A stretch of DNA of 64,000 bases from Tubiluchus corallicola (lineage: Eukaryota; Animalia; Priapulida). The notes beneath the pieces were generated by a model. It made no database searches. It saw only the letters and a list, made by a program, of their open reading frames with translations, and was not told the origin of the DNA. The stretch lies in assembly GCA_030141605.1 (NCBI GenBank), contig JAQGDQ010000337.1, forward strand, positions 1-64,000. The letters are read 5' to 3'. The translations under genes were made by a program, and so were the position numbers. This document shows positions 11,962 through 48,243 of the stretch, one piece after another (position 1 is the first letter of the stretch; every line of letters begins with the position of its first letter).

Positions 11962-11968
11962 GCCAATC
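11962..11968 (+). promoter_or_regulatory. CCAAT box about 200 bp upstream of the DOMON-gene ATG, in the divergent intergenic region shared with CEP295
   Basis: agccaatca motif followed by an Inr-like tcattc near 12020; position fits a promoter but motif alone is weak evidence. Confidence 0.3.
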
Positions 11969-12163
11969 AACGATCGTCTGAGGAATTCTAGGTACAGCAG
12001 GTCAGACTGGAGTACGCGCTCATTCAGACTCGGAAACACGCTGCTTGTTTAGTTAATACTTTAAATATTTAAGTAAAATAGTACATGTGGTGCTAAAACT
12101 TATTTAATGGATGTAGGATAATGCTCAGAGGGTTATCAACAGATTCGAGCATGCCTTGGAGTT

Positions 12164-15100
12164 ATGAAAGCGGACACAACGCTTGTTTTTGGATGTTTGT
12201 TGTATATAGTTTTTTATAGTGTATTACTGATAGACTGTCATGTTCAATTAATTTTTCCGCCTGCTAGAAAGTATGCTTTGGACTTTTTGGATAATCAAAG
12301 AACAGTCGCTCCCTGTGGAATGCCTAAAGGTATAATTTTCTGTGTTGTGACTGACAGCTGTTTGATATAAATTTTATATTAATTATTCGTTAATTTCCTA
12401 TATTAACTTAGCTTTGTGACGTGCAAACTTGATCGTAGTTTATAAGAATTATCAAGATCAAAACATGTAATTCCTGCGGGTCTGTCTAGGCTATCCAGTC
12501 CCAGGTGACTGAGTGGCACTCAAGTTGTGATTCATACATGTTATGCGCCCCCACACACTGACTGCGTCTAGACTATCATGCTTCTCTTGTGGGAAATAGC
12601 CAACAAGCGAAAATGAAATTGTGCTCAGCAAAGAACTTTTATTGGTAATATCGTCAAGAGAGCATGCCATTTAAGAATTACGCTATTGAATTTCATTCAT
12701 GATTCAAAAAATGCTGTTTCGCTGTTTGTCTGCTGTTTGTTCGCTGTCTGCAGTAGTGTGTGTCATTCACTCATTCTCACAATGAATTATTGGAGATATT
12801 CCCAACCTCCCCCAGTGAACTGGTCCCACCCTTGGGTACGTCCACATCTCGGCTGAGTCCATTGGATGGGTCATCTCTTCAACCACTCACCGATCCCAAG
12901 AACCTTGCTGCCGGCAGAGTTTCCTTCCATGGGCTTGTTGGTAGTTGTCATAGTCACCTTAACGCCCTGGCATGCAAAAGTAAGGAAAGAATTTGGCTGA
13001 CAAAATTACGAGTTTGCAGTTAAAGACCTGTTTGTATGGTTAAGTTGTGTATGGGAATTAGTTTAATGGAAAAACTAGTTATATTCAGTTTCTTAAGTAG
13101 GCTTATGCTATGCGCCATCACCACCCTGCTATGTTACATGTTCATTTAGCTGATGTTTGAGTTGTTATTACACATTATTTACATTATTCTCAATACCTAA
13201 TCAGACCTGCTTGGCAGGCATACAAATCAGTTGTGTTATTACACTACACATTTTAAATAAATGCAAGATCTATATACCATGAAAAAAAATTGTGCCTCCA
13301 CATCCCCAGCAACCACACAACTCATACCACTTTTGCCATCTCACTCACACTACATCAAGCATTCCACACCATACACAACATCCACTATAACACACTATTC
13401 TCAGCACATTACACCACACCGCATCCATCACAACAACCACACTACACTTACCACACCCTCTACACCATACAAATTGACACCTGACCCACCACATCACGTG
13501 TATTGATGATGATGATGATGTATGAGGAAGATGATAATGACGTACGATGATGATGAGGATGATAATGATGCACGATAATGATAATGATGACAATGACAAC
13601 GATGAAACCAAGCGACACTAACCTCAACAACACAACAGCATAATGAAACCACGCAAAATGCGGAAGTTAACGTACTTTGCACAAATTGTGTCCATAGAAT
13701 TGGTAGACGCCCATAAAAATTGAGCCGTATGCCTCCAAATTGGGTGTAACATGATCACTAATGGAGGAAGTGAACGACAGGCAGTGACCTGTTTGTGTGA
13801 CTAGTTCCTTGCTGTCATCCATGGCTTATAGTGCTAGGCATAACCTTTGTATTGATCATTAGCTAATTTAATCTTACTGTTTACTTTAACTCATGTACAA
13901 TGATTTTTGTGCCTAATAAATAATAATAATAATAATAAGTGTTTGTATTTTGAAGCTGAAAATGAATGAACAGAAATTGAACACCAAGTCCCCAAAATCT
14001 TTTTTTAGAAAGCAATAAGCAATGACAGTAAAAAAGTTTTCTTTTTTCACAGGCATTCCGGGAAGTCCTAAAACGACATTGGTTGCAGGATCAACAGTCA
14101 ACATCTCATGGAAGTTAGCATATCCTAATGTGGTAAATATGCCATTTTCATCCCACAGCTTCATTTTTACTTATAGATGGTGTGGCCTTCTGATTTCGTG
14201 AAAGTTAAGCAGTATTTGGCAGCTTCAGCAGGTAGTTGGATGGGTAAGTCAAAAATGCCAAACTGATAAAACTTTGATAAAAAATTTGAAAATTCTGAGC
14301 ATTGGGTTTATTCTAGGTTTTTAGACCTAGTATTCCTTCTCATATTACAGCAAGTTACAGCACAGTGTAATGACCTTGATAATTTTGTATTTAAATTAAT
14401 ATCATTAAGTTTTCTGTAAGCCGTGAGCCTATTTTTATCTACGTGTTCAAATTCCATTACATTCCATTCCATTTACAGTAACGACAGACTTAAATGGCAT
14501 GTAATGACGAAGGAAGAAACAGCATTTTAAATATTTAAATTTATTGTTTCTAATTGCAAAAAAGACAAGATATTTTTTACAAATTTTTTAAACGTAAATA
14601 TTGACAATAAATTGACGAGAAGACTGTTTTTATTTGTTATTGGTTTTTAAATGAGAAAATTGTACTGCTTTTCCCTATCTACTATGGTCTACTGTCGATA
14701 TCAGCCACTAATAACTGTTTATGTTTATTTTACTGTTTATAGGGAGGTTTTACAATAGATCTGAGAAATTCAACAAGTGATCGTGTAACAGTGCTAGCTG
14801 CCTATAATCCCATTGGTTTAGTTGAACCAGACTATACGTAAGTACTGAGCATAGGCATATTTAAAATTTGTTATGTAGGCTGGCCTATTTTACCAGACAG
14901 ATAATGGAAAATTTAGATGTTATTATGGACGTTTCAGAGTGATATTTACATCAATAATGCGTCTGCTCATCGTTACTTTTTGTCTAAACAGCTGCCTTGA
15001 ATCTGATTTAGTTATTAAACTGAACTGTAATCTTTAAATAAGGAACGATGGCAGGTAAACAAACACGTTTTTGAGATTTTAAGCCAAGCTTAAGCTGCGA

Positions 15101-17451
15101 GACAGGAAACAGTCGCAGACATATACACTCAGGTCAACTGCGCCTGAATTCCAGTAACTAGTAAGGTACATGCAACACTGCTCAGCTTGACCACGACTGA
15201 GTGTACGTGAATGAAGGAACATTCTGACCAGAGCGTGAGACCAGACCATCCCAGAACCATCGTTGAACAATGCTTAGGTTTAAACCGGCAGATGTTCAAT
15301 GCCTGGATTAGGACATGAGCAACTCACTTGAACTGAGTTGCAGTGCATTGAGTTGCATCGTAAGGTTGCTTATGTCAAATGGATGTACTCAGAACTAGTG
15401 GTGTACCATATGTCGCTCAGTTGCAGCCAATTGTCAAGTTTTCAGTTGCTTTGCTTTGCAAGGTCGACCTAAGCTTGCCTTTAGTTGAAAAGATCCACAG
15501 AAACTAGATACTTCTGTAGTGTAACGAGCAAAATGAGTCAGTATGAGCAGGCTGCCTCTGTTTCTTTTTTTTGCAATAAAGTACTCTTTATAAAGCTGTG
15601 TACTTGCTTTAATATATGTTTTCTTATTAAAATGTATGTTTTGACGATTTGACCAGAATGTGTTTATTATGAAGCACAGTTGATGCTGTAATTTTTCTTC
15701 AAAATGACATTTTTTATTTGCGTTTATTTCTTTGTTTCATAGTATCACGCATTGGGCAGTGCAGCTTCCAGATGAAGAGTGCCTGGGATGCTTCATCAGA
15801 ATCCTTCGCGAAGCTGAGGAGTGGCAGAACACAACACAGTGGAGTTGTGGAGACGTTGATATTGTAGATCCAGGTGATCCACGTAGATTTTGCTGTTTAA
15901 ATGTTACGTGTTAGCAGTTAGCTACCTGATTCGTGTTAGTACACATTAGTCATGAAATTTGTTTAGGCTTTTTGTAAAGGGAAGAACAAGTCACTCAGTA
16001 TGTTGGGTTTAGTTATACTGTTATCACTTAAACTTAGAAAAATATAACAAAGAATTTTGCAAAGAACTGCCTATAAAGCATAAACTTAAAATGTACTACC
16101 TCTGTACAGAAATTCTCAGGCGTGGTGGTTGTCACCATTCGCTTGAAAGTCATGACGTAACTGTGAGACTTTGTGACTTTTCGTAAGCGCGCCCTGCTTA
16201 AACTAATTCAAACTTGTGCAGCTTACCTAATGTTCACGCAAAGGTATTACAAGATTGGCTATCTATTTTTTTTACAATAACTTATTATACTTTTAATGAA
16301 GATTGGCGATGAATGACATCAATGAAAGAAGAATAGGCATTGATAATGGGAGTGTCCAAGCACAAATGTTCCTTGATTTGAAAATAGAGATGGAAGGTCA
16401 GAAATTCGAGGTCAAGGTCATTTATACCCTTGTAGTAGGTTTTTGCCATTTTCTTGTGAGCTGCTATTTTCTAGCTTCAATTTGTTGGAAGTTAAGAACA
16501 GCCTTTTTTCGTACTTTTTTGGCAAACTAAGAAAACCCCAATTTATTTTAAAAGAGCAGGCAGTTGGCTTCTAGACAACAAAATTCTGCTGCAGGAGGAG
16601 CAAAGTATGTATAAAAAAACATATACTGAAGTTTTGTCAGCCTTCAATGCTCTTACTTGCATTACTCCTTATTTTTTTGTTATATCCGTGTTATTAAATC
16701 AGAAAATTTTCAGTTATTTGAATACTTCGTACCCACAGCTATCAGCGATCCATTATCCCACATGGTATGCTTCACTTTTGCAGAATCAATGATTTGTGTG
16801 GTGCTTTACAAACCTTAACTGTGGGTCTACGGAAAAAATCTTGCTTCAATTCCTTAACAGATGGAAAGCTATTAAAATGGTTGAGACTAGTAGGCGGAGC
16901 AGGTGTTATAATTTGTAGATTTTAAATAGTGCTGCATGAACTTACATGATGTAAGATACTTATAAATAAGTTAAAAATTTCTAGGTTGGTGTTTTATACT
17001 GCTTGTTACATTTCAAAGTATGATAAGATACTTACAAACGTCTTGCTAATTTGAACATTTATTTGCAGTGGCTTGTTCAATGTGATGATAATACTAGCTC
17101 TTTGTACTTTGTGTGCTTCCAAAGCAGCTTATTATCAGTATAAAGATCATAGGCTGTACATAAGTTAAACCTAAGTTTTTTTTAATATTTGTTTTAATAG
17201 GAGCTGTGGATGGGAAGGAACTCTGCTCGCAACATGGGAGATTGAATGACGGGTCATGTGATTGTGATGAGCTTTATAGCGGAGATTATTGTCAGTATAA
17301 AGGTAGGTTTGTAAGCAGAAATACTCATAATACTTTGTGTGTGCATGCGCGGATATGTGTGTACACCTGAAGGCATAATTGTGTGTGTGCCTGTGTGTGT
17401 GTGTGTGCATGCGCAGACGTGTGTACACCTGAAGGCATAATTGTATGTGTG

Positions 17452-17497
<46 letters not shown>

Positions 17498-20400
17498 TGT
17501 GTGTGTGTGTGCATGCACGGACATGTGTGTACACCTGAAGGCAAAATTGTATGTGTGCACGTGTGTGTGTGCATGCGCGGACATGTGTGTACACCTGAAG
17601 GCATAATTGTGTTTGTGCATGCGTGCGGGCGGGCATGCGTGCGTGTGTGCATGCGCGGACATGTGTGTACACCTGAAGGCATAATTGTGGGTGTGTGTGT
17701 GTGTGTGCGGGCGGGCGGGCATGCGTGCGTGTGTGCATACGTCTTGGATACCCTATAGAAAGGTGAAATGCTTTGCTAACTCCCTTTGTTGAGTGCATTC
17801 AAGTGTATTGTATAAGTGGCTCTAATTGATTGTGTATGACCAGGATGAGATCTCGGACCTGTTTTCTTATGTTGAACCAAATGTTCAAACTGGAGTTCAA
17901 ATCCTAGTTAGCTCAGTTTTTCAGTACTGTTGTTCTTCTTCAGTTAATTAGCCCCTAAGGTTCATTGTTTGTTATGAAGAATGGTGTTTTTTGAATGCGT
18001 ATAATGTGCTAGTTCATCTACTATGCAATTAATTTGGAGTGAAAGCATAAAAATGTCAACTATTTAAGTGAAACTATTGATGCTCATCCATTAACGAGCG
18101 CTGCACCTGATTAAAGACAATGACGTGTGTACACCCGGATAGTAAAACAGTATGACTAAAGGATAATTTATTTATTTATAACCAGCTGTTGGCCATAATC
18201 AAATGCTGTCTTTCACCAAGGACTGGCTGCTTGTGTGTAATGATTTAAAAATTTAGAACTATCTTGTTTTTAATGGTGGCATCATGTGTTTTTGTAACAG
18301 TATTTGGTCTTTTTTTGTTAACAAACGGCGTCGAGTATTGCGGTCTACCAGTTACTGTTAAATTACCTTGCTTTTTCAACATAAAAAAATCTGGTAGTTG
18401 CCTTAATAGATTTTTGGCTGATTTTTCATGATTGGTTTGTGCCTTGGTGTGATTACTTGATTGATTGATTGCTTGATTGATTGACTGACTGATTGATTAA
18501 TTGATTGACTGACTAACTGGTTGGCTGGCTGGCTGGCTGACTGACTGACTGACTGACTGACTGACTGACTGACTGACTGACTGACTGACTGACTGACTGA
18601 CTGATTGATTAGTTGATTGACTTGATTGGTTGATTGACTCATTGGTTGTTTGATCGATTGATTGATTGTGATCAGTCATCTAATGATATTTTTAACCTCA
18701 ATGTTTTTCATTCAGATGAGTGTAAGGAAAACTCTGATTGTGGACCACATGGAAAGTGCCTGGAAACTTATTTCTCTGCTCCTCCCAAGTTCATGTGTTT
18801 CTGTGAGAGGGGATGGTTTGGTACGGGGTGTCTAAAAGGTATTTATGTGTTCTTCTTGTAATTTTATTGGAGCACCACTATTGCACTGGCTAAAATACAC
18901 AGAACTCTAGAGATTAGCAGATTTTCCACTGATTTGTATGTTGCATCCTACAGTTTTGTAATTTTTCATAAATTACATTGCATGTCGTTTATAAGCTGAA
19001 ACTGAAGATTTTCAAGATAAGTACTCTAACAAATCCGCAGTTTGAAATTCAAAACCAAATATGATTGTAAAAAGGGAAATGCGGAAAAATAAAAAAGTCA
19101 CTGGATTTGAACCACGGACCTGTGACTTACTCACGAGTTCAGTCCTGGGAGACTGGTCAACCCCTTGTGATCAAGATTAGGCTGAATTCATTAATTCAGT
19201 CAATGGTTCAACAACATTTCTAGTCACAGTAATTCTACTCAGGAACAATCTGTGGATGATTAACCCAGCAGTACTGTTTTGTGGAGTTTTTAGCTGTTAT
19301 TGAGTTTTAAAGAAGCTGCGAAAATTTACCTTGTAATTAATCAACAGTAAATTACCTTTTTTTAGAATCACCCGTGAAAACTATGAGCCATTGTGAACAC
19401 ACGTACCGAATGATCACCAGCGAGACTGACCTCTACTGGAGAATTTTACAGGTAAAAGTGAAACCACATGGTAATGCCATAAATTTACATATACCTCATT
19501 AATGATTAATGACGATTCCTTGTTCATAAAATTCTAGTGCTTCCTTAGTAAAGTTCAGAGGCTGAATAATCAGAGATTTATCATGATGTTATGGTTAATG
19601 TATTGCTAATTCGGATGCAAATGATACGGGTTCGACTCCAGCAGAGAAAAAATTTTTCTGGTTTTTTACATACATTTTCGGCCACATGGTGTTGTAAAAC
19701 TTCGTTAAAAGTAAAATTAGGTTTAATTTTTGTTTGCATCTCCTGCCCATTTGTTGCCCAGCTGATCAAGTGTATAGTTCTAATATGTCATAAACGTTGG
19801 TTTTTCAAACTTCGTCATACTGCATGCGCTCTGTCGATAAAACAGAATCTTGATAAGCTAGGTTCTGGCCCTGCCACAACTGTTTACACTGATTGTGCTT
19901 TCCCTGTCTCAGCCTCTGGGTGCTGAGTGATGAACTGCATTTAAAAAACTGAAGTCACGTGGGGCAAATTTGAAGCACTCGAAAAGTAAACCTGTTTTTT
20001 ATTCATTCTTGTGCCGGTCTGAATGCAGTTGCATTTGTTAACATTGAATAATTTGGGACGCAGCCTATTTATGTTTACTTTTGATAGAAAAGAAATGTAT
20101 TTGTTGATTCTTAATTCAGATTGTTAATATAGAAAGGGTGATATCAGTTTGTTAAATATCCACAGTATAAATATTTGCTCATTGTGTGAGATACATAACT
20201 AATTTATTATACGACTGTAAGTAATGCAATTACACACTTGCATTTTTAACTTTTACCCCCAGATGGCAGGCAGAAAAATGCTCAATCACCAATGCCCATT
20301 TAGACAGTGTGACGTTAAAAGCTATGGCAGGCTATTGTTTTGTTCCGGCTAAGCTGCGGCTTGCCTCTGTGTGAAATTTTACACTATTTTTTACAAATAT

Positions 20401-23400
20401 CATTAGCGCACAAAAAATCCATGTCCTGCATTTACATAAATGACATATTCCAGTTGAATATTTCGTTAGCTGTTTGAAGATGTTGTCTGTTTTTTTATAA
20501 ATAGGCAAATAATTTAACTACTTGTGAAAAATCTGCCGGGACCACATGAAAAACACTTCATTTACTGAACAACACAGCATGAAACACTTAATAAATTTAC
20601 CGAAAATGAGTATAACCCCAAAATGATCTTGACACAAAAATGTGATAATTAGAAAGCTTTAGAACCCCTCTTGATAGATCCGTTGGTTGTTTTTCCTGCA
20701 AAAACTCATTGTAACAGAATTAACGAATGTTGTGTAAAAAGTGAAATTTCTCAATGGCCATAAAGTTAATTAGGCACAACAATGGAACTTGTAATTGCAT
20801 TATTTGCAGTTGCATTTATGTTGTTGAAAGTTGGAGTTTGGGCTTTGCCCACTGACCTGACTTTCCAACAAGGGCCAAACATGGAGCATTGATTTTTGAA
20901 ACAAAGACACTTCTTCATGGAATTCAGTGCTTTACACGATGGAAGCTGAAATACAGTGTTCCCTCGCTACTTCGCAGTTCGTTTATCGCGTACTCGCTGT
21001 TTCGCGAGTTTTCAAAAATATTAATGTAAAATATTTATTGCGGTATTTTCGCTGTTTCGCGGGTTTTTGCGGTAGTCCGTTTAAAGTATTTTTGCACATG
21101 CGTAGTACATATTGTACTGTAATGTATAGATTTGTTGAATTTTGCATAAAAAATCACAAAACATATAAAAATATATTAAAAATATTAATTCTAGCATTAA
21201 AAGAATATTATAAATCATAAAAAATTACCATTTACAGTAAATAGTGTATTTATTCGGCGGATGAATACACACCAAAAATGAAATGTAGTACTTGTGACCT
21301 AAAATAAATATAGTGTCCCTACTTCGTGGAAATTTACTTATTGCGGGCAGGCCTGGAAAGGAACACCTGCTATAAGTGAGGGAATACTGTATTGCACACC
21401 AAAAATATTTAACTGCAGGCTTACTTAATATACCTGGTTGTGGTGGGACCAGTTCCTTGCTCATTATGCCTCTACCATGATACACTGAATCAGCAGAGGT
21501 GTTTTAGCCATGTTTGGATATACATTCAAAAACTGCAAAGGAAATATTGAACTGAACTGGTTCATTTATCTCAGAGACCAAGTTTTGTTGCCATTCCTAA
21601 CTCTGTTGAGCTTTTGACCATTCAGCTGACCTTGAGACAATTAAAACAACCAAAACAATTTGTGTGATTATAACCAAACATGTCCAAACCAATCTCTTGG
21701 TCATATTTGCTTATTTTTTCACATTTTGTCGTTACTTTCTTAATAATTTTTATTTACTTTGCGGCTAATGCACCACAAGCAGTTAATACCATGTATGTTT
21801 TTGTAAGGCTGTCTTTTACAACACGTTTTTTAATTGTTTCCTCTTCTAAGATTTTCCAAATCTGCCATCTGTTAGTGTGACTAATTGCTGGTATAATTAT
21901 TTTAATCTAAGAGATTTTTAATAAGTGGAATTAAGCAGCAAAACTTGGTTTTTTAAATTTTTTAAATTTTCACTCTTTAAGGCTCACTCAAAGTCGTAAT
22001 TACATATTATGTTTTCCTTTCTCAACTTTCAGGTTTATTGCTCTTATACCATTGCTATTATTACATGATTTACTTCATCCTTATTTACATTAAGTTATCT
22101 ACAGAAGCATGCATAACTATAATCATTTAAGTAAGGTGAGTGTGTTAATGACCGTATGGTCGTACACTCACCTCGCACTACTCAAATTATTTTATTTAAA
22201 ATTTTTTAATGTGTTTGATATTGTATTTTTTGATGTGTGAAATAAAATTCATGGTTCATAGTTCACATTTTTGCCTATTGCATACTTATTACCTCCTGCA
22301 TATATATGTTTTTGCCATTTGTTGTGTTTCAATGTAAAGTTCCATTTTACAATTTAATTCAATGTTTGTTTTTTGTCTGATAACAACAAATAAATTTAAT
22401 TTTTTTAAAAGTTCTAGTTTTGTTTATTACTAATAATATTTAATGTGTATACAGGTATTTTTGTCCTCTATTGTAGAAAACACAAGAGATTGAGGTTATC
22501 TTGCACACAGTTGGTAAGACCTGGTTAGGAGTTGGGTGGAGGCCAGGTCATGACAGCACAGGTGGAACTGGTAATTATTTATTTATCCTCTCATTTCTTT
22601 TTATTCATAATGCGGTCGTTAATGGGATCGAGAATGTGATCATTATTTGTATTTTTTTGTTATTATAACTTCTTATTGCGCAAAATCTGATTCAGTAATA
22701 CTGATTGAAACTTTTCTTGATCCATACCCCATGCTAATGTTAGATGCAGGTTGAGTTGCTACCGAGACAACGATTATATATTATTGAAAAGTATGATTAG
22801 GGTGTTCTTTGTTTAGTTTTCTTTGAGTTTCTGTGCTAGTGTGGTTCAGCCCACTAATATACAGTACGAGTGAGCACTCTCTGCCAGAAAGCGATTTGTA
22901 ATCGAATCGAATTTGTGGATTTCGAATTCGAATTGAATTTGAAAGATTTTCCTACCAGTAGTAAAAAGTGGCCTTACAAAGATCGTGCATATTACTTGAT
23001 TTTGTTCTGCAGTAAAACCACTATTAGTTTGTTAAAAATTTTGCACAGAAAGTGCAGCTAAATTGTGTTAATTGCACGCTGCTTCAAACATTCTAATGAT
23101 ATTGAACGTATATGGCTGAAATGCTGAATTATTCAAATGTATAATTTTAGGTTCAAATCGAATTTGAACTAAAAAAGCTCGTTTGAATTGAAATCGAACG
23201 TTCAATGCTCACCCCTAATATGCAGTAATAATGTTACGCTCATAGACGCAATTCTACAAATGCAAGACTTACACTGATGTCTCGGTGTATCGGAAAATTC
23301 GGATAAAATCTGGACCGTTAAAAGTCCCGCGTAATACGGACACAGTCCGTTATTTATCAAGCTGACCACATTCATCAGTGTAACCATGTATACATCTCTA

Positions 23401-26400
23401 TGTATAAAAATACAGAATCAATTATGCGGAGTTATTTGAGTCAATTGCCGACAGTTTTTATATGCTTTTGCATAGGAGCGGCCCGTACTAGATGTTTTTA
23501 AGACAGTTAGGCGATTGATTCTACATTACCATGAGTCTAATACAAAATACAGACAATCGGCAAATTTGGACCAATGACTCTCCGCTTTTGTTCAGGAAAC
23601 CGAGATATGAGTGTATTTGAGAAACTCCTTATGTATAGGGTAATGATGATATATGACTTCTGAAATGAATAAATGAACGCATGATTTAATAAAGATTAAT
23701 GATGAACAAACACAAGTTATGTGCATTGTCTACCGCTTCTAATAGTTCCTCTTTTTGGTTTCAGAGTTGTCACCGGAATGCAGGAACTTTCCTCCTTTGC
23801 CTCATTATGCTCGTACACACGCTGACACTGGATATGGACCTCAGGGTAGGTGGAGATACTTTAACGTTTTAGTAATTTCAACACTCGACTTAAGAAGAAA
23901 AGTCAGTTTAAAATGCTTGTTGGTGTTTGAAAAAGTAAGGCTACATGCTTCAACTAAGTTGGTCATTACAACAAGTGGCGAAAGATCAAAAATTGTTTAC
24001 CAAAAAAAAATTGCAAAGAGCTTCCGGTATTCAGAGTGAAATTGAGCACTTATAGTGACATCTGTTCAGTCTATTGTGAATTATTTAAAGCAGAAATAGC
24101 TGTCGTACTACACAGATGTGCATTGTGCAATACTAGGAGCATTTTTTACCCCACACTTCCATATTGCTCTACTTTCACTTGTTTAGGTTGCACGTTAGTT
24201 TGTGTAGATTGCCTTACTGCCAGCAAGTTATTGCAAACTCTGACAGTTTCTGCAAGTTACTGTCTGGTGTGAACATCTTGGTGAGTTACTCTCGACACTT
24301 CTTACAGTGAATAGAGAAGGGCATGTCAGCTCACTGTTGGAGAATAACTCACAGCAAGTTTTGCTCTCTAGTCTGAACACGCTTGTGAGTTACTGGGCAA
24401 GTTACTTGATGAGAAACTTGCTAGTCAGAACGCACCATAATGTTGTTCCTGTCTTGTTACAGCGAGTCCTCTTCATGCTATGGACTGTACAGATATGGTC
24501 ATAGCCCAAGTTCGTGGAAACTACAGTCGAGTCAAAGACTCTTATACAAGAGATATTTCTAGTCCAAGAGAAGACGAATTTTTTGATGGACAAGATAGTT
24601 TGACCGCTGCACTAGCTTACGAAGAAGAATGGCCAGATGGGTTCACAAGCACTTGGTTGCTGTTTAGGAAAAAGTTAGTAGGTAAGCAAATTTGGTTTGT
24701 TACACAAAACGTGGAAAATTTAATCACTATTCTTCAATTAAAATATGTAGGCACTGTTTAATAGACTCACTTTAGGATGAAAGTATTTTGACCAAATTAA
24801 CTGACTGAATCAATTAGCCGACGGATGAAGTATTACTACTATAGATATATGAGTCTTCATAACTTTAGTATGCATTGCAGTGGCTTCAAATGAATTTTAG
24901 AAACGAATCAGTGTCAAAGTTCATATATACAATTGTTTAAGTACTAATTTATATAAGCGAATTAATAAAAAATAAACATTGAAAACGAACCTTGATGTGC
25001 ACAACACTTTTACCAATGAATCACTTGGTCATTCACTGACAAACTACAAGGCTATGCTATATGCGATCACAGTTAACTTGCTTCTGTAGCCTATTCACAC
25101 TGAAAGGCGGTGTTGTTCATTTATCCAGCACGACTGCTTGATCCTGTTAAACAGTTATATTAAAACGAAGTCAGAAACAACAGATAGAAACAATTATTTT
25201 ATGTTTAGTAGATTATGTTTATATTTCTTAAACATTGAAAATAAAACCTAGACACCTAGTGCTTGAGCTGCAGTTGGTGACGACCTTGTTTCCCCTGTGA
25301 AAAGCAACGTGAACTTCAAATGCAAGTCGCTGGGCAAGTGATTAAATGTTTAGCTTCCGGAAACAACGAGGTTATTTGCAGTGCATGAGTGGGTGACAGA
25401 TTCAAATCAAAACCGCGACGCTAGCATATTAGCGCATATGATAAACGTGCTGTACCTGTTTACAAACAGGACTGTTTCTACATGTATTATAGTGCACAGA
25501 ATCAATGTAAAAGTGATAGTAGAGCAGTAAAAGCTGTCCGGTTTGCACACAAGTAAAATATTGAGTGAATTGTGTAGATTTATTTGAGTCAATTGCCGAC
25601 GGTTTTCATGTACATTTGAATAGGAGTGCCTGTTCCAGACATCGTTGAATCAATTAAGCGACTGATTCTATTAACTGTGAGTCTGTGAAATGGTGCTTAC
25701 TTGTAGTTATAGCAGTAGTAAACAGTAGTGTACACTGTAGTCATTGTATTTGTATCTTGTTGTTGTATTTCGGATAAAAAGATTAGGTATTTTATCTTAA
25801 ATGTAAAAAATGGATATTTGTAAATTTCATTTGTTAAAAATGTAAATTTAAGCTTGGAAATTGAGTTTATGCCTCAAAATGTACGGTGACAATATCTTTC
25901 AGTCACAGACCGTGCTGATCACAATATCACAGATCATCCGATGCACGTGATATGGGCCGTCGGTCAGACGTCCCAGCAATATACTCACGTGCCTAACTCC
26001 GGTTTGGAAATCATGAACTCAAGTAGGACGGACTTCTATCCCGAGGATGAACTGAAGTATCACGGAAGAGCTGATCTTCAGAGAGGAGCTCTACGAATTA
26101 ATTTTATCTGTAAGTTTATGACCGTATGCTAGTAGCGAAATTTAAAATCAATTGTAAGAAATCTTAATTATTTAAACATATTGAAAGCAGATAGACAGAA
26201 TACGTTTTTTAATGTGGCTTGTTTTCAACTTAAATTCAATAAAATACGTCAAGTTAATTCAAAATAATTTCTTTCATGTTAGCCGAGTGTTTTGATGTTA
26301 TGGTACATGCAACTTTAAAAACATTCTATGATAAATGAAAACAATCAGAAACACTATTAAAATTGAATTTTGCTAGCAATGTAACAGCTATGCAGCTTGC

Positions 26401-29400: not shown

Positions 29401-32400
29401 CTGTATGCTTGCGGGATGCCCACACTGTATCTCGACCCAAGGCGGAGGAGCTGCACAAGCAGCCAACGGCTAGAAGGCAGAGGAGGTCAAGTGACCCAAC
29501 GGCCATGTGTAGAGGAGTAAACCTTCCAAATCAGGAGTGGAGCCCCAAAGGTGGACCAGTGCAACATGCTCACTGACTCCGGCAGCTCCTGCAGCCAACC
29601 TGGTGCCAAACGTATTGCTCCGCTTTCCTTTGGGCTACACCAGGGAGGAAGAGAGGGGGTTTCTGTTGTCTGGGCAACTCAGGATTTCCATACACCTTGT
29701 CCAGGCGTGCGCACTGCCACAGTCGACGCTGCAGCTCCATGATCAATAACTGACTCTCTTGGCGCACACTCCATTGTCTTCCGAGACAGAAGGATGCCAA
29801 CAACAACTGAGCCTGCCAAATGAATGGGTAGTTATTGCTGAGAAAACTACTTGTGTGAGGTTATGTCTGCCGTACAGCCGTCAGCTGTTTCCATAATTGA
29901 AATGTATTCAAATGTGGCTATAATATTACTGGCACTTCAATATCTTACAGTTTCATCTTAGAAGCAATTAGATGCAGCAATTTACATAAATTAAGTCTGT
30001 CATTGAGTATTGGATCGCAGCTTTCAGGTTTTCCAAACTTTATAAAAGAAAAAATTAACTAACACTTTACATCTTACATATGCTTAATTGTTTCTATTTT
30101 CAGTCATATAGTAAATAATGATATCATCTTTGATGAAAGCGAGGATATATACAATATCACACGGTCTACTTATCGTAACGTCACAACGTTTACGTTTGCC
30201 CGCAAGATGGTCACTCATAACCAAGACGAGGATCAGCCATTTCGTAAAGATGGGGTATACATGTTTTACCCCGTTTCTGGTTAGTAAAAATTTTTCAGTT
30301 GTTTTTATGCTTGTTGTAACCGTGTGATTTCGGCCAGTCTGAGTAAGTTGAAAGCTGCATCTATTGAAACTTTTTTGAAAGTTTTGAAACGTCAAGCAGC
30401 AACAAGTAACAGTGTGACGCAAAAAACAAATATATAAAAAAATTTTCTTTGAAACTTTCCAAGATTAGATTATATTCTTTGATCGTGCAAGCAGGCACAT
30501 ACTCCAATTGGGCAATTTTTGCATAAAAATGAACTAGTAACTTCGCATCAGTTTTCGTTAAAAAGAGCCTGCCAAACTCACAGCCACGAATAGCAGAAGA
30601 AGGCAATTTTTCTTTACTAAAATTACAACTTGTCCTATTGTAATACAAAAGAAGTTTTTTCACCTCATCTTGAGTTTCCATGTTGTATTTACATGTTTTG
30701 CCTGCTTCTTTTCCTTAGATTTTAGACAAATTCCTCAGAAATTTGCTTCAAGGTAATAAGTGCGCACATTAAACATTGCTCATGTTTCTGATTCTGATTC
30801 TATTGTGTGCTGTGGCTTGTTATTTCCACTTCTGTTCTATCATCATCATCATCATCATAATCATCATCATCATTATCATCATCATCATCATAATCATAAT
30901 CATCATCGTCATCATCATCATCATCATCATCAACAACAACAACATCATCATCATCGTCATCATTATCATCATCTTCATCATCATCATCATCATCATCATC
31001 AACAACAACAACATCATCATCATCATCATCATCATGATTATTATTATTATTATATGTATCATATTATTATTATTATTATTATTATCAAAAAAAGAGCAAA
31101 AAGAAAACTAGTTACATTCTTGTAAATATTAATATGAGTTCTTTACATATTGAATATTTGAAAAATGATTTTGATAGAATTTAGAATTTATTATTGGCAT
31201 TTACATTATACTTTAATGACATAGATACAACATACTTTAATGACATACGTACAACAACAAAATACAAAAGTACAAAACAAAGCTACTACATTATAGCTAT
31301 AGAGTCAAAAAACACACACAAACAAATAACAAATTTACATAATTTTAGCATAGATACAGTTAGTTTGGTATGCAAGAGCATCTGGAAATGTGATCTGACG
31401 AAATTTTTGTTTCACATTTATTGATCCTATTTGTGATGCCGGAAGAAATCATGTAAGCAAAAGTGGAATTTAACAATAGAACGTCTTTTTGCTTTTTTCG
31501 ACAGGTGGAGGATTTGTAAATAAAGAAATAGGAAAGATAGGTAAACACTACCTGCCACCTGAAATCTCGTTAGACAAGGTGTGCATTGGACCTTGTGCAG
31601 GTGATGATTTAAGTTCATCTTAATCCATTTTTAAATCAATAAAATTTACTTAACATAAATTGTTGTGTGTTCTTGTGAAGATTGTAACTATATAGAATCT
31701 TTTTGCTGAAAGTTTAATGAAATATTGTGTTTTTGTATTATTTATTCTGTCTCTTTTGCAACATTTCGATTTATTGTATCATTTTTCAGATTTTTCTTAT
31801 TTTTTTGTACCCTCACCTATGCAGAACTGCGTACGAGTCTTTTTAATTAAGATACTGAAAAAAATCAAGGTTACATTTTTTGTGCTAACTATAAGTTGTT
31901 GTTGTTGTTGTTGTCGTTGCTGTTGTTGGCATTGCTGTTGTTCCTTTCCTGCCTTGCTGTGTTGCTCAAATATGCAATTTTCAGTATGAATATGCAAGTT
32001 GTGTACAGCTTAACACACCACAAACACTTGCTGCCGCAAGGATTACTATATACGTAAATCTTGTAACTTACTTATGTAATAATGCATTGTCCAGGATATA
32101 GTAGAGGAACAATCTTAATGTGGCATAATATTTTCGATGCAACAAAGATTCGGAGATTTAAAAGTTGTTTTAGATTGCTTGAGTGGCATGAAAAGAATCT
32201 AACTTGGGTTACCCTCTTCAAAATGTCAGGAATTTTGATAGGGAGAGGGGCAAAAGGTTACAGAACATTAAGAAAATTCCTCTACTAATAAGAACCACTT
32301 GACAAGGTTTTGATGTGTACGCGTCAACAAAAAAAATAACAAATTTAAATGGCATGCATGGTAAGTCTACGACAAAAACCAAGTAAGAAAAACAACTACT

Positions 32401-35400
32401 ATTTCGCTTTGTGCTATTTTTTTAATTCTTAATTAATATTATTTAGCTTTTTATATATTTAGGTGGCAGAGATCCTCCGAAGAGCCCTGATGACGGAGTT
32501 GTCCCGATCGGGGATGCACAACATAAGAAGATAACTCGACCGAATCTCGTGTGCCAGGGTACAATGTACTACCCTAGTGGCTGTAGACGGAAACAAACCG
32601 ACAACTGCGAGTATGTTATGAAGTGGAAATACAGTACGTCAATGTTAAATATCACATTTAATGTTACGACCAAGCAGAAAGACAAATGGACGGGCGTTGG
32701 TTTTTCAAACGACAAGAATATGGTAAGCGAACCTGTAAATGGCGTTCATAACATTTGAATCATAACCTGTAGATGGCGTTCATAACATTTGAATCGTAAC
32801 CTGTAGATGGCGTTCATAACATTTGAATCGTAACCTGTAGATGGCGTTCATAACATTTGAATCGTAACCTGTAGATGGCGTTCATAACATTTGAATTGTA
32901 ACCTGTAGATGGCGTTCATAACATTTGAATCGTAACCTGTAGATGGCGCTCATGACATTTGAATTGTAAGGCAGAATGAAGACACTGAAGCACGTTAAGT
33001 TCGGGAATTAGTATCAAAATTAAGGACAGACGTTTTGTTTGCTTTATTTGGTCTTTATTTGTGTGTTTACATAGCAAAATCGTCCATAAGTTGGCAATCA
33101 AGATTTTCTAGCTATTCACATATTCTGAATCTGCGTTTCTGAGGATCATTTTGATACCAAGTTCATCACTTTATGTTATTTCTAAGCTGAGATAATCCAC
33201 GTTGAAGATGACGCTACGCACTGAAAAACATAATCTTGAGAAAATCGCTGTTAAAATTAGCCATTGTTTTTTGTTGCGTTTCTACAAAACGCTTAGCAAC
33301 CACACACATGTTAGTTGCTACGGACTTGTACAAGAGCACATTTAAGTTATGTTTAAATCCAGTAGATGGCTCATCCTGGTGAAGAGAGCTGGGCTTGGCA
33401 ACAGAAAAAACCGGAAACAAAATGACAGCTTCCACAAGCTATTATCGGAGTTTAAAAATAGGAGTTTTTTACGATTGCAGTTTCTAGACAGAAAAGTGGA
33501 TAAGGAGTTGTAAAATTAAATTTCTTGTGTTTTTAGAACACTTTCTTGATAATTTGATGCTAGAATATAAAAGTCCAATATATTTAGGTGTTGGTTTTTA
33601 TGAAATACCCAAAATTGGCATTTGACCAAATTTTTGGCACATTCACTTTGAAGCATCATAATGAGCTTTATTTATGCCGACTTTATGGTTGGTTTTGGTG
33701 TGCAAGCACACATTTAGTCAATTACAAATTCTCTGTATTAGCAAGAATAAGCGGAGATTGCAATTTTAGTCAGATCATGTGCTATAAAGTTAAGGAGAGA
33801 GCGCTTTTTACCTTTTTTAAACAAAGACAAGTGTGAGAGACAAGTTTTTAGTAAAAGTGAAGAAACGTAGTATTTTTGCAGTTTTCTTTCGCGCCATTCG
33901 TGATTTCATGTAACGTTTATTTAAATTATGTAACACTTATTTAAAAATATATGAGGTAACGTTATTTAAATTGGGTTGCTATAACAGTTACAAAAGAATC
34001 CTGTTTGTCATGAAATTCTTCCTCTAAACAATGTCTTGTTTTGTCTAAGCACTCATGATTCAAAACAGAAATGATTCTAGGTTATATTTAGACAACTGTG
34101 TGTTTCATACAAATTAGTAAAAGAATCATATCTTGTGTTTCGTTATGGAGGTGGTAATTCCCTTTATTTTGTTTTTCTGTGTTACTGATGTTGTATTTAA
34201 TCTTCTGCAGATTGAAAGTGATGCTATAATTGGCTATGCCTACGATGATGATGATGGCATCACTCACTTTAATATTACAAACAGGTACTGTGGCCAATTT
34301 GTTTTTTTTATTATCCATTCGTTCCGCTTCGCGTATGTCGCTTACCAGATTTCGTCTGCAATCACATCGTCTCTGTGTGGAAACGGCGGTGAAGAAGTGA
34401 AGAGTGTCACACTAGGTTGTGTACATGTGGCCAAGGCAGTGAAGTAGTGAAGAGTGTCACACTAGGTTGTGTACATGCGGCCAAGGCAGTGAAGTAGTGA
34501 AGAGTGTCACACTAGGTTGTGTACATGTGGCCAAGGCAGTGAAGTAGTGAAGAGTGTCACACTAGGTTGTGTACATGTGGCCAAGGCAGTGAAGTAGTGA
34601 AGAGTGTCACACTAGGTTGTGTACATGTGGCCAAGACATTCACACTGAACTTGCACGTATTACAAAATTGTCCGATAGATAGTTATACTTACATTAACTT
34701 TCATGATGTAAATTCATTTTTTTAAACTAATGAATCTCATAAAAATTGTGCCAGAATATTAACTGAATATGATTAAGATTAATGTTGCAATCACTTTGTT
34801 GTTTTAATTAAGAAGGTTGAATGACGTGTAGTATTTTGTCATGGACAAAGTAGAAAATTAAAATGTTTACCCCATTTGTTGTAAATAAAAATATTTTTTG
34901 TCAATAAAACTACATCAACATACATATACATGTCTTAGTAACTTTACTTAAAATTAAATTTTAAATTTCAGTTTTGGCACTAAAAGTGAAATTTTCTAAA
35001 ATTTCTTGCACAGAACTATTTTTCTTGCACAGCTGGTATATTGTTCGACAGTTTTAACTGGTTTTTAAGCGGGCAAAAACAATGAGTTAAAATACTTTAG
35101 CAGTTAAAAATAGTTAGTAAGTTTAATGGGTTGGCGAATTTTTATTGCCACTTACCAACAAAGTAACTCTTGTTTCATACCTTGTGGCAGGTATATCAGG
35201 AATGAACATTAGTTACTTAAACTTATTTACACATTTATTATAAAGTTTTATAAATATTACAAATTAAAATGTTTGAAATCCGATGCAGGTGGATCAGCAA
35301 TAAAACTCAGTCTCCATCAATTGATGCGAATCAGTCGACTATTTACGATGTTGGTGGCAGTCGAAATGACAAGTTTTTGCGAATTTGGGTGAGTGAATGT

Positions 35401-38400
35401 TTTCCTCAGCTACAAAGACTCCAATTTTATTTTTTTAATGTTTATTTACTATAATGTCATAAAATTCATGCTAATGAAAAAAGAAAAGAGTCATTAAGCT
35501 TGAAAAGTTATTTGGTGGACCTACATAGAACTATAACTGTGCAGGAAAAAATTTTGGAAAAATGAGAAATCTAGAGTAGGTTGTAATAGGCACAAATAGG
35601 TAATTCAGAGATATTTACAGTGTAGAAAGCATTATTGTTTATTGAAACTGTAAATCCAGTGCTGGTAAATATAGTCAACACTCACCAATCAAGTTTGCAA
35701 ACAACACAGAAAACAGCTTTCTTATCTATGCTGCTAAGTGACTATAATATTTTTAGTTTACAAGAGATCTAGATTCCGGTTCCGAGGATGACTTGCCGTT
35801 TGGGGAGGACTATTGCTATTACGTCTTCATCCCTTACGAAGGAGGTTCTTTCAACAAGGAAACGGGTGAAATTCGTAAGCACAAGAGGAAGCCAATTCCA
35901 ACAGCAGAGAAAGTGTGCTTCACTACCTGCCCTGGTGAGTTGGTGACATGAATTAAGACTGTTTATTTTATTAATGACCAAATTTATTTTCTTTCTACTA
36001 ACAATGAAACCTGCTTTGTAAATTGTGGAAGGAAGGCAGTCAAAGATTGAGTGATGGTGTTTGCTGTTTTTCTATTTCACATTTGGTATTTAATTGGTGT
36101 TTGAAACTAAGTAACTCACTTGATCTTTAGAGCAGCATATTTTGGAAATTACTAATTGTGCTTGCTTATGAGTATACTCTCTAGTTATTTCTTGTAGCAT
36201 TTGCAAACTTTTTTTCTGATTACTTACTTTACTGCACAATTTAATCTAATGTCTTCTATCACACAATAGTGTTTCTCTAGCTATCTTTACTTGTCGCTTT
36301 GTCTGTAGTTTCAATGTTTGTTTTTTCGTATTCGTTTCCCTTCATATCCGAGGAACTTTACACACGTATACTGACTTCTTAGGCACCCCACTTACACACT
36401 TGATTTTTAAGACTTTAATATTGTTATACATTGTTGTTACATGTACGTAATATGTGGATCTAATAAAACTGTAAAACTGTAGCATGTTACAACTGGAAAA
36501 CTAAAACTGACGTAGTAATATGTTTGCAAACTGACATTTCTTTTATAGTTTAGACTAAAATATGGTTGTTTCTATTTATAGAAATGTTAAACGAAAATAA
36601 AGTATGCTCTAAAATATTAAATATTGCAACAGTTTTTTAAAATCAAAATTAGATTAAAAATAATTTCGGATAGTCCAATATTGTTAAACTTTCAAAGCTA
36701 TTCCCGGCTCGGCAAATCTACTAAGACTGGCAGGGGCGCTTTTTTGTCACATTCGCTTAGCTGACAAATAGGTGCGGTACCATGATAAACATGATCATGA
36801 ACTGCATTGTTCGTCTGTGACGTGCAGCTCATTTTCGTGACCTCACATCAGCGTCTTGTAGCAATCTTCGCTTAAGTAAATGTGCTCGACTGTGCAGAGA
36901 AGATGCCTACTATTGTACAAACTGTGGTTAGTTTGTGATGCAAGCGATAGCTGTGTTCTCGGTTGCCTTTAATTAACTTTCCAAGTTAATTATTCAAATA
37001 TTAGCAATAATTGCTAACTTTTATAGGCAAGAAAATTTATATTTTGGACAGTAAATTAAAATGAGATTGAGTCTAATCAATAGTCCGGTTTTCTTTAAAT
37101 TAATGCCGTAAAGTGCTTGTAATTCTATTTTATGATTGTAGAGGACACTACTACCACTACCATATTGCCGATCAGCACGACTACAGTTTTTGAACCTACA
37201 AGTGCTGCCCCCACTGCACCTTCAACAACGTGGCCTACGGATGCGCAGTACGACGTTGGATTTAAGTTAGACCAAGCGTGGGATGAGTCGTTAGCAGACG
37301 AAACCAGTCAGGTTTTCAAGAGTTTAAAGAAAGAAGTTGAACAGACTGTGAGTTGTGTGGTTTAAACTTATGGTATTTATTCGAGTATAACGCGCACACG
37401 TGTGTAGCGCGCACCCCTAATTTTCGATTAAAAATTGGTATAAAATTTTGTTTCAGTTTTTCTCGGCTGAGACCAACGCATTGTAAGTGACAAACTTTGT
37501 TGAACACGTGCGGCCATGATAAAAATCATTTATTGACAACGTAAAGTATACTATGAACACCCCGAAAAAAGACTTTTTTCTGAGTCTGAGTCCCACAGCA
37601 GGTCGGCATATATTATTGATTATTTCCTTAGCTACGCCTCGCCTCTGCAGTGAGTGTTGCGCATGAGCCATTGAGAATTATTAATCGTCCATGCAAGTGC
37701 TTTGGATACTGTTACTAAAAATAGACCATAGGCGTTTTGTGGGTCAGCGATATCTTCGACTAATGAGTCATTGCACAAATAATATATTGATACATCTAAG
37801 TGTGTCACCCCAGCTCTCGTTTATAACGCGCACCCAAACTTTGTTTTCTTTTTTAGGTAGAAAATTTTGCGCGTTGTACTCGAATAAATACGGTATGTGG
37901 TTTTATTGCATGTGAATTGTAAAACTAAAGTGTGAAATTATACTGACTACATGAATTCGAGCAAATTGCTTATAACTGAAAATTGAAAAGCCGAGACTTC
38001 ACGGAGTTTAAGTGAAACATTAATACTTTGCTAAGGTTGAAAAATTTTTCATACTCTCTCATAACTCCTTTGCTAAAAATAATTTGTTTGCCAAGTGACT
38101 TGCTTAAAATGTTTCATTGATTTTCTGAAACAGAACAACAGCAGGTGATCTGTATAGATTTGGAGATGTTCATTGGTCAGAAAGTAAACGTAACATAACC
38201 ATATTTGGCTTGTGAACTTTCTTCACAAGATAAAGTTTTTTCTGCCCGAATGCAATCAATGTCTCCACTAATCAATTTGAAGATGGCAATTGCTTACTTG
38301 GTCATTGTTCTGTTCTGTTGCAAGCTTAGGTATTTTGCAATGTTGTGCAGAATTGTAGATACTTTTTGTTTGTTGTAGGTTGTATAGCAAAATGTCTTGT

Positions 38401-41400
38401 TCTTTAATGAGTCTGTTACGTAAAATTGTTGGCATTTTTGTAACCGGGGTTGGGCCGGATTATTGTATAGGCTGCTGTCTAAGACCCCGCAAGATTGGGG
38501 GTCGATCAAGCTTTGCTAACATTTGGTAAAAAATCTGTTTTTCACTACGATTGTGATGAAATGTGTATTAATTTGGGTTGTATTAAATAGTGAAATAGTG
38601 TTATTTCTTAAACAGTGCTTTTATTGACAAGCAAAAGATAAATATTTCAGTTTGTTTAAAGAATTTGCAAAAAAGTTTACTTCAAGCTATGTAAATGTCG
38701 CTAAAATATATCAGGAGTGAAAAATGTTCAAGATGGGTGCGAGCGAGTTAGAGGATGACTTCTTCTGGGGGGCCCCATAATTTCGTTAGTCTAAGCGCCC
38801 CAGAATGTCATAATCTGGCCCTAACCGTGGTTGCCTAAAGGCTGACTTGAAATTGAGGTGGTATTTTTAGTGAGGTGAAATTAACTGTATTTTCAGTTTT
38901 ATTTATTTATACCATTTATTCATATTTGTATACGGTACAATAAATACACAAGGAAAATAAGAACTGATAAGAATTACAATAAATTAGTTCAAGCTGTACA
39001 CGTTAAAGAAAAAAGTTTGTTAATTTGTTATAACAAAGTAAAAAAATAATAATAAACCATAGAATCACTTATGTTATCATTTTGGTCTGGATAAATAGTC
39101 AAATAATTTAAAATTTCATATTATTCAGTTCTCCTAAACTAGGAGGTCCTAACTTATACACAAAGACTTGTGTAAATCTATGTGTATTTTTAAGTCACAA
39201 TAGTTGTAGGATAGTTGCGGGTGCTCACGTCTTTTTATACTGTCTGTCACTTTGTGAACTGAGATCCAGTACTCAGAGCTTGTTCCTTGCAGATAGTTGT
39301 GGCTTGACCAGAACTTAGCTCATTATCAAGAATAATCCTCCATGATGAGACGCTAGGCTGGTACGTCCCCGGTTTTTGTCGTGCCGGAGTTTTCACATCA
39401 TCTTCATTTTCTCCGCAGTTGACTCTCTCTTTGCAAGAAGTTGAGGAGGTCCATGCTGTCATAGTGCAGAGGTTCACGAATGGTTCCGTTGACGTCCAGA
39501 GCCGGGTGCTGACCGTTGGCGGTGACGGGTCAGTGAAGGAACAGATTGAAAGCACACTACAGGCTGACATAAGTTCGGGAACATTGGGCAATCTTAGCGT
39601 TGTTGCTGACAGCTTGTCTGTCTCACTGGGTGAGTATGTTTCTGTGTGGAAATCTTGGTAAATAATATAGTAACTCCTTCCTCTTGTTCAACAACAGTTT
39701 AGTGGTATGGGTGCTTGGAATTACTTGATTTTTTTAGATAAATAGCAGTGTATTTTATTTGTATAAATTTTGTGACCTGATTATTATCCTACAATTAGAA
39801 AACTAATTAACCCTGTACACTTAATCAACATTGATCTTGTTAATTGTTATTACAGCACCTCCTGATTCAACTATAACACTTTCTACAATCTCCACAGAAT
39901 CAGCAACAACAGAGCCAATTGGTAAGTTGTAAGTTATTGATATTTCACTCAACAGGTGACAGCACCATGTTGATTCTAGCGCAATAATGTTTATAGTCGT
40001 AGTTAAAGTCGTTTGTCGTTGATTTGTCTTGTTCTTTTAGCATGACAACACGTGTTGCATACAGATACCGTTTATTAATTTTTTATTTTATTGATTAAGA
40101 AACTCGATAATTGCTTTATTTGCAGGAATAAAAGAGTAACTGTGTGAATTGTGTTAAGCGATCTGTGGTTTATGTTCTGTAATAAGAAGTGCAATAAATT
40201 TAATCATGGTCATAAACTTCATCATAAATTTTCTCGGTAAACTTTTTAACAGTAGGCGTACTCTAGAAGATCGCAGTTGACAATTCTTGAGTCTTCCGTC
40301 AAAATGATGTAAGATTTTTGTTTTTTCCAAAAGAATGAGATATGACTAACACAATTTTACTCTAACTCGTGTTGAAAAGTGCAACTATTTCTAGATCCAG
40401 GTAAAAACAAAACTGTCATATATGGCATTGTGGCAGCAGTGGCATTCGTGGGTGTCGTGTTGATCGGTGTCGCCATCTTTGTGATTTGGAGAAAAGAAAA
40501 ACGAGCGAGGGAGCTTGAACAAAAGCCGGGCTCGATGGTTGACATAACAAATGCTGTGAGTTCATTTAATTCCATGTAACGGGCTAAAGTTGGGTGTTTT
40601 CAAGTCTGCTTGCCCTTTTTTTGCCCTACTAGGGCTCATGTAACATTCCGGCTCATTATCGGAGAACCCTTAAAGGTGAAATACTGCACGTGATAAAGTC
40701 TTACCTCAACGAGGTACAGTGTGTAGAGCAGGGGTGTGCAAATTATCAGACTACCCGGGCCACATTAAACATTCCTGCAATTCCTGCGGGCCACAGGCAG
40801 TTTAATCAAGGAGCCAAGTACAGAAAGGCCTAATAATCATTTTTTTGCATCCGACCTGCGTACATCATTACTACTACACTCACGAAACTATTTTAGAAGT
40901 TATTAAAATTTATATTACAAACCATATATGTCTACTTTCAGGACAGATAGTGGTAATTTCATTACAATGCATATTAGTAATGTGTATCACATAGTCTGTG
41001 TAGTACAGTGTTATTAAGCTACAACCTTCTTGTAAGGGTTAATGGCATCCGATCTAGTAGAAAAAACTACCCGCACTATCTTTGGCACGGACTTCAGCTG
41101 GACACACTCAATTAATCGCCCTTGCCGCACTTTCATTAGGTTGATAAATCTCTTTGTGGGCGGGCCGCAATTTGCGCACCCCTGGTGTAGAGTATCGAAC
41201 CCAGACGGTCGTGAAGTATTCAATGTTCAGTGTTGGTCTCTGTCGCTACTTACTTTGCATCACTTTAAACCAGTCCTTCTGTACACGTGTGCAGACTATG
41301 TGTGTATACAGTTGAACGGCTGAGAAAAGTGCGATCGATTTAATGATTTTTTCACCTCTTTAATCAGAAAACCATCTCTACCAAGTGTGATATCTAAAAA

Positions 41401-48110: not shown

Positions 48111-48243
48111 TGCACTACCCCATAGGTTTTTCCCCTTTACCTGTTATTTTAAAATTCTACACGAATTTTACGAGTTTATTCACAACATGACAGCTGTTTT
48201 GTGCGTATATAATTCCAGTTCCTCTCATTTTTTGGCACATCAC

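Follow-up and report, generated by a model that had tools for sequence, protein, structure and literature searches.

Gene structure and domain order

The window, that is, the whole stretch of DNA that was analysed (64,000 nucleotides; positions 1 to 64,000 of contig JAQGDQ010000337.1 of Tubiluchus corallicola), carries on its plus strand a gene of 26 exons (12164-43788) for a membrane-anchored protein of the nahoda family. Its N-terminal domain, called the head below, resembles lytic polysaccharide monooxygenases (LPMOs) and keeps their N-terminal histidine, but has Asn and Gln at two other positions of the copper site. The product has 1202 amino acids, the frame contains no internal stop and 25/25 introns are GT-AG. 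Splicing was modelled from homology and splice signals, using tblastn with Priapulus caudatus LOC106808604, which is the nearest protein; NCBI applies the name nahoda to other relatives. The window protein and the Priapulus protein share 575 of 1146 aligned residues (50%) along the whole length, far above chance. A Pfam scan of single exons, covering 21 stretches, gave matches to EGF, DOMON and SEA. Exons 1-5, the part of the gene checked with reads, had zero coverage in the one RNA run examined, which has no bearing on expression.

The features of the gene are as follows.

12164..12238, plus strand: predicted signal peptide, residues 1-25, ending I-D-C before His26 (hydropathy; a small residue, including Cys, precedes the His in homologues)
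12239..15869, plus strand: predicted LPMO-like head, residues 26-156, exons 1-4 (144 bits against the family profile; homologue folds)
12164-12329, 14053-14132, 14743-14837 and 15743-15873, plus strand: head exons 1-4
12239..12241, plus strand: His26, the predicted mature His1, retained (His in 111/111 homologue rows)
14127..14129, plus strand: Asn81 (AAT), replacing the second brace His (TdAA15A His91; alignment, shared with Priapulus and the copy on contig C1301)
15837..15839, plus strand: Gln146 (CAG), replacing the axial Phe (TdAA15A Tyr184; alignment, shared with Priapulus)
17218..18837, plus strand: two EGF-like domains, exons 5-6 (17201-17302, 18716-18838; Pfam EGF E 4e-5 and 1e-3)
18838..26822, plus strand: DOMON1 with internal insertion, exons 7-11 (weak Pfam DOMON match)
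24480-24482 and 26061-26063, plus strand: DOMON1 Met326 and His446, both invariant in 42 homologues
26823..31599, plus strand: DOMON2, exons 12-15 including 31505-31600 (Priapulus model, Z 15.6 to the dopamine beta-hydroxylase DOMON)
27006-27008 and 31546-31548, plus strand: DOMON2 Met524 and His618
32549..35933, plus strand: DOMON3, exons 16-19 (Pfam DOMON E 4.7e-8)
32720-32722 and 35880-35882, plus strand: DOMON3 Met722 and His822
35934..40414, plus strand: Thr-rich stalk, SEA (37243-39857) and second stalk, exons 20-23 (Pfam SEA E 0.007, one exon)
40415..40489, plus strand: single transmembrane helix, then RKEKR (hydropathy peak 3.1)
40490..43788, plus strand: cytoplasmic tail of 170 residues, exons 23-26 (tblastn with the Priapulus protein; 74/145 identical)
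41481-41719, 43362-43532 and 43752-43788, plus strand: tail exons 24-26

The domain order is thus signal peptide, His1 head, two EGF, three DOMON, stalk, SEA, stalk, one transmembrane helix and tail. The SEA domain of the Priapulus homologue matches Pfam with E 3.5e-8 and known structures with Z 12-14. An earlier sequence-only reading of this DNA, beginning at 12164, had listed the LLIDC leader, the His after it, PCG, WSCGDV and the EGF, DOMON, stalk, SEA and transmembrane elements. All of these are present, with an ATG at 12164 and WSCGDV in exon 4. Its start and domain order stand. The end it placed at 40555 does not, as three further exons 3' of that position encode the rest of the tail up to the stop at 43786-43788, and the exon at 31505-31600, which holds the DOMON2 His and was located by tblastn with the Priapulus protein, is added to the model.

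The family labelled by NCBI as 'DOMON-like domain-containing protein nahoda' shares with the window protein the predicted signal peptide, the His1 head, two EGF domains, a split DOMON1, further DOMONs, SEA and the transmembrane helix. His1 head, EGF pair, split DOMON1, DOMONs and SEA with transmembrane helix were all found here and the head matches the family profile, so the nahoda-like identity proposed earlier is borne out.

Predicted LPMO-like fold of the head

A profile of 24 homologous heads found the AA15 LPMO TdAA15A with E 6e-5, the sole match below 0.4 among the five PDB matches listed. All 24 heads match both Pfam LPMO_10 and the BIM1-like family at E <=1, with best values of 3e-6 and 7e-7, respectively. 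For a weevil head modelled with a predicted local distance difference test score (pLDDT) of 90, the 18 Foldseek matches listed at E <=0.001 were all LPMOs or LPMO-like. In a wide structure search with this model, ranks 1-21 all belonged to the LPMO superfamily, and the highest-ranked unrelated row scored Z 8.4. The top match was TdAA15A (5MSZ; Z 13.1, root-mean-square deviation 3.2, 130 aligned residues). The Priapulus head, a low-confidence part of a whole-protein model, matched an AA10 with Z 8.8 (root-mean-square deviation 3.3, 128 aligned residues). Foldseek with the whole protein gave mostly unspecific multi-domain matches, and a Pfam LPMO_10 search of the genome gave no match, from which no conclusion was drawn as exon-split genes are easily overlooked.

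These models indicate that the nahoda-family head has the LPMO beta-sandwich fold, which is predicted for the window protein through its homologues. The comparison with LPMO and X325 structures that the sequence-only reading had proposed, run on homologue heads (Z 13.1 to 5MSZ, 11.4 to 6IBH), came out as it had anticipated. The window head also keeps both cysteine pairs, Glu140 and the surface Trp141, which matches TdAA15A Tyr166.

Replacement of two copper-site residues

In TdAA15A the copper brace is formed by His1 and His91, and Tyr184 is the axial residue (PMC5823890). In the profile alignment the family motif Y-P-H falls on Ala89-Pro90-His91, and Tyr184 is matched by the F of F-W-S-C. Among 83 near homologues (an arthropod-heavy set that includes isoforms and leaves out five long proteins without the start motif), His1 was present in 83/83, the second His in 79/83 and the Phe in 79/83. 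In a wider set, the best 150 of 1233 matches in a 50% library, the corresponding counts were 111/111, 132/142 and 96/104. Of 64 homologue rows complete at three sites, 62 have both His and two have Thr, and 55/64 are His/His/Phe.

The window protein has His/Asn/Gln at this site, with Asn81 for the second His and Gln146 for the axial Phe. The Priapulus homologue shares both residues. Lys76 of the window protein replaces another usually conserved His, and a test for the N/Q/E-x-F/Y motif gave T-x-Q here versus Y-x-F in the family. Thus the histidine-brace head of the sequence-only reading holds for the fold and for the His1 that is invariant in the family, and fails for the second His and the axial aromatic.

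The changes are concentrated at the site. Among 28 head columns with a conservation of 80% or more across 64 representatives, each 250 residues or longer, 25/28 are kept in the window protein; three are changed in the window protein and two in Priapulus, and the two shared changes are exactly the two site columns. The chance of two shared changes hitting both site columns is 1 in 378, or 1 in 126 when His1 is counted. Head identity to Priapulus (79/128) is level with that of the best-conserved DOMON (DOMON parts 84/135, 93/172 and 86/172). In addition, positions 8238-16248 of the window are 98.9% identical to C1301:1-8000, which lies at one end of its contig and has the same Asn and Gln codons. 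The two copies differ at 0/472 exon bases versus 73/7524 other bases. The C1301 copy probably stems from the other allele or from overlap in the assembly. The Priapulus identity and the lack of exon differences between the copies indicate that the head is under constraint.

It is very improbable that the gene is decaying or that the replacements are errors of sequence or model. Such an explanation could draw on the lack of transcript support for exons 1-5 in one RNA run. However, the frame is open over 26 exons with canonical introns, the same codons occur on a second contig and the same residues in Priapulus, and the intron phases around exon 2 agree with those of the paralogues.

The AA11 enzyme CWR-1 shows what such replacements can do. 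Chitin oxidation was abolished when Ala replaced either its second His or its axial Tyr, and the same loss is cited there for second-His mutants of two AA10s (PMC9550227). The second-His variants still held copper and reduced O2 to H2O2, and CWR-1 also has a non-catalytic recognition role (PMC9550227). With other residues in place of both the second brace His and the axial aromatic, the window protein is very probably not a polysaccharide-cutting LPMO, as judged by alignment and by analogy with CWR-1. The sequence-only reading had suggested an active copper oxygenase that is driven by its own hemes and acts on chitin, cuticle or mucus. The predicted LPMO fold, His1, the cysteine pairs, Glu140, Trp141 and the probable heme ligands are indeed all kept. 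In contrast, either loss alone ended chitin oxidation in CWR-1 (PMC9550227) and the window protein has both, and a search of introns 1-4 revealed no other exon that would supply the His or the Phe. The suggested oxidative modification is disfavoured by the double replacement, and we regard it as quite improbable.

A further feature concerns the family as a whole. A nearly fixed Tyr (111/137; 14121-14123 in the window) stands at the position of Ala89, which lies next to the copper in TdAA15A, and most members also have Tyr (87/105) at the position of Glu182. Therefore even intact nahoda members may not act as classical LPMOs.

Paralogues with intact and altered sites

Genome searches found four further family genes, giving at least five paralogues in total. 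The paralogue at C893:254563-269460 has His1, W-H-L-G-Y-P-H and Y-L-F-W-S-C, that is, the intact His/His/Phe set, together with two DOMONs with Met and His. Its exon joins are backed by a spliced fragment that has 86% identity to the C893 head. The C1793 paralogue keeps His1 and the Phe, and its second His stands one position further on, in an altered loop; its first intron is about 29 kb long. The C1584 paralogue keeps His1 and the Phe and lacks the second His, and the C1158 paralogue has no head on its contig. Intron phases near exon 2 agree between the window gene and the paralogues.

A tree of 26 rows, for which 21 of 41 chosen homologues passed a motif filter, joins the window gene to Priapulus and C893 to C1158, each with support 100. 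Deeper nodes have support of 19-54, and therefore no order of duplication is claimed. An intact paralogue was not seen in Priapulus caudatus, in searches that were not exhaustive.

The paralogues bear on whether the window head holds a metal at all. The head could be a metal-free pseudoenzyme that binds cuticle glycans or a partner protein, with the hemes feeding another protein such as the intact paralogue. Consistent with this, two site residues are replaced and Lys76 stands for a usually conserved His, Trp141 is kept, and the genome has an intact paralogue (C893) as well as one that is degenerate in another way (C1584). The recognition role of CWR-1 without catalysis (PMC9550227) provides a parallel. 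On the other side, His1 and its processing site are retained, the CWR-1 mutants lacking only the second His still bind copper (PMC9550227), and both replacements are amides, able to donate oxygen and identical in two species. On balance we consider a metal-free head unlikely, but it is the strongest of the alternatives.

DOMON domains and electron supply

Heme-binding DOMONs use a Met and a His, both of which are missing from dopamine beta-hydroxylase (PMC10691727). All three window DOMONs have the pair: Met326/His446, Met524/His618 and Met722/His822. The Met-to-His spacings are +120, +94 and +100, versus +93 in CG8399. The DOMON Met of an abalone homologue aligns with Met65 of the cellobiose dehydrogenase cytochrome (1D7B) with E 0.007, in an alignment that covers the Met side alone. 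Met and His both occur in 132/133 canonical DOMON repeats that have the two columns filled, and the remaining repeat has lost the pair; Met-containing repeats served as seeds for the profile, and the repeat set is redundant. DOMON1 of the window protein keeps 34/35 conserved columns. These sequence features make it probable that the DOMONs of the window protein bind heme. The heme-type DOMONs of the sequence-only reading are accordingly upheld for the Met, which matches Met65, and probably for the conserved His, and not by the fold comparison, in which the best match of DOMON2 is dopamine beta-hydroxylase. The cellobiose dehydrogenase cytochrome was not among the 50 structure-search rows listed, and is not thereby excluded as a match.

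This fold match is the starting point for another explanation, in which the DOMONs are heme-free and the protein, with its EGF, SEA, stalk and tail, has no redox role and acts as a surface receptor or matrix anchor, with or without copper at its tip. The closest solved DOMON by sequence and by fold is that of dopamine beta-hydroxylase; SEA, stalk and the conserved tail (74/145) fit a receptor, and there is no fused electron source. In contrast, dopamine beta-hydroxylase lacks both the Met and the His that are present in all three window DOMONs, and algal homologues carry a cytochrome b561. This explanation seems improbable to us.

The window chain has one transmembrane helix and neither a cytochrome b561 nor a dehydrogenase domain. 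The idea of a 'self-contained' redox system is thus not supported: if the DOMON hemes relay electrons, these must come from outside the chain, as no source is fused to it.

DOMON2 exons 12-15 (26821-31600) are flanked by two phase-1 introns, and Priapulus isoform X4 skips DOMON2. By analogy, the same skip is possible in the window gene.

Family range and comparison with known systems

Named family members come from a sponge, nematodes, molluscs, a hemichordate, Chara and Rhodelphis, and UniRef labels one mite member a chitin-binding type-4 protein. Among 41 representatives scanned, 31 have DOMON, and one protein, of the green alga Bryopsis, combines it with cytochrome b561, as does a homologue from Mesostigma. 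Judged from their sequences, the Bryopsis and Mesostigma proteins, with intact head, EGFs, DOMONs and cytochrome b561, comprise a complete trans-membrane electron chain. The window gene and Priapulus differ from most nahoda members in having His/Asn/Gln and three DOMONs, not His/His/Phe.

The window protein resembles TdAA15A in fold (through an intact homologue), in His1 and in the surface aromatic at Tyr166. It differs in having Asn for His91 and Gln for Tyr184, in its membrane anchor and in its fusion to DOMONs. With X325/Bim1 it shares an LPMO-like fold (Z 11.4 to 6IBH for a homologue model), weak BIM1-like Pfam matches (in homologues, best E 7e-7), the cell-surface location and the lack of a known polysaccharide activity. 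The copper site is His/His/Asp in X325, and Bim1 is GPI-anchored, whereas the window protein has no second His, is multidomain and has a transmembrane helix and tail. The cellobiose dehydrogenase cytochrome and the CYBDOM proteins (SDR2/FRRS1, CG8399) are alike in having Met and, probably, His at the heme-ligand positions; unlike these, the window chain has no flavin or cytochrome b561, the latter occurring in algal homologues only.

The bacterial proteins RbAng-1a (His1 and Asn41) and YcnI resemble the window protein in their N-terminal His, in a residue that donates oxygen, or in the window protein may do so, where a brace has the second His, and in membrane tethering (PMC12537917, PMC10952591). 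They belong to unrelated families, are linked to permeases and have no heme domains, and their copper binding was measured, whereas that of the window protein is a proposal. RbAng-1a binds copper through His1 and the Asn41 oxygen with a dissociation constant of 74 nM and has weak oxidase activity only (PMC12537917). According to a review, mono-histidine braces are mostly tied to copper transport (PMC10952591). In the window protein Asn occupies the second-ligand column of the alignment. TrsA (PMC12377627) was also considered as a one-His precedent and was rejected, as the TrsA model has two His.

Proposed function of the window protein

The reading we favour, tentatively and at somewhat less than an even chance, is that this membrane-anchored nahoda paralogue holds copper at the cell surface by His1 and Asn81, and that this site is reduced through the probable DOMON hemes by an outside donor. 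The signal peptide would be cleaved before His26, leaving His1 N-terminal, and copper would be bound by the amine and imidazole of His1 and the oxygen of Asn81 as a mono-histidine brace. The DOMONs would bind heme, and electrons would flow from the donor through the hemes to the copper. The outcome may be copper capture or reduction, or slow turnover of O2 to H2O2, at the epidermis or cuticle. The sequence-only reading had offered cell-surface copper handling as its second option.

Several points weigh against this proposal. The fold of the window head is taken from the weevil and Priapulus models, and in the Priapulus head residues 29-53 and 56-66 are below pLDDT 50, so the geometry at the Asn is tentative. 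Asn and Gln are known from two species alone, and the probability that both were kept by drift is about 0.27, given about 52% identity at variable columns. The C1584 paralogue keeps His1 with neither a second His nor an Asn there, so His1 could serve folding or processing. Ang-1 belongs to a different family, which makes the chemistry possible and does not prove its use in the window protein. For the DOMONs, profiles A2 and A3 gave no alignment extending to the cellobiose dehydrogenase His, and the best structural match of DOMON2 (Z 15.6) is a DOMON that binds no heme.

A broader claim, which is possible if rather doubtful, is that an LPMO brace was rebuilt in an animal lineage to a His1/Asn mono-histidine site with an axial Gln and a three-heme relay at the cell surface, beside intact and differently altered paralogues.

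Other features of the window

Intron 13 of the gene contains a full-length 5S rRNA sequence (29291-29409, plus strand, 99 bits). Microsatellites or tandem repeats lie in introns at 17325-17750, 18460-18640, 30840-31070, 32730-32950 and 34390-34630, and downstream of the gene at 47030-48190 and 52820-53850.

About 1.5 kb upstream, the first exon of a head-to-head neighbour (10506-10622, minus strand) resembles the N-terminus of CEP295, and an exon of a convergent neighbour (49089-49331, minus strand) resembles the C-terminus of VWA8; neither has a Pfam match. An open reading frame at 59880-60464 (plus strand) has a weak interleukin-17 match (E 0.019). By eye, several of the cysteines expected of the interleukin-17 fold are absent from it.

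Relation to earlier work and significance

An early LPMO branch with DOMON and EGF sequences has been noted in one sentence (Voshol 2019, PMC6950343). In the literature searched, mostly without subscription papers, no study of the nahoda head or of the Asn/Gln variant was found; the sequence table of PMC6950343 may list such proteins. Five supplements of PMC12537917 mention no DOMON, nahoda or Priapulus, and one preprint passage touches on DOMON in passing. The link of LPMO to DOMON and EGF is thus already in print, and what is new here is the altered copper site.

In the ancient, barely studied nahoda family an LPMO-like head is fused to probable cytochromes; the family ranges from green algae and sponges to insects, and it bears on how animal LPMO-type copper sites receive electrons. 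One species with intact, altered and missing second ligands provides matched positive and negative controls for the function of the family. For enzyme activity in the family, the C893 paralogue is the right first candidate and the window copy the wrong one. Copper binding, if it occurs at the Asn/Gln site, would make this site an animal example of a mono-histidine brace built on an LPMO scaffold. If the brace was indeed rebuilt, the paralogues would form a natural series that shows how a single scaffold changes its role among polysaccharide oxidation, copper capture and the supply of peroxide.

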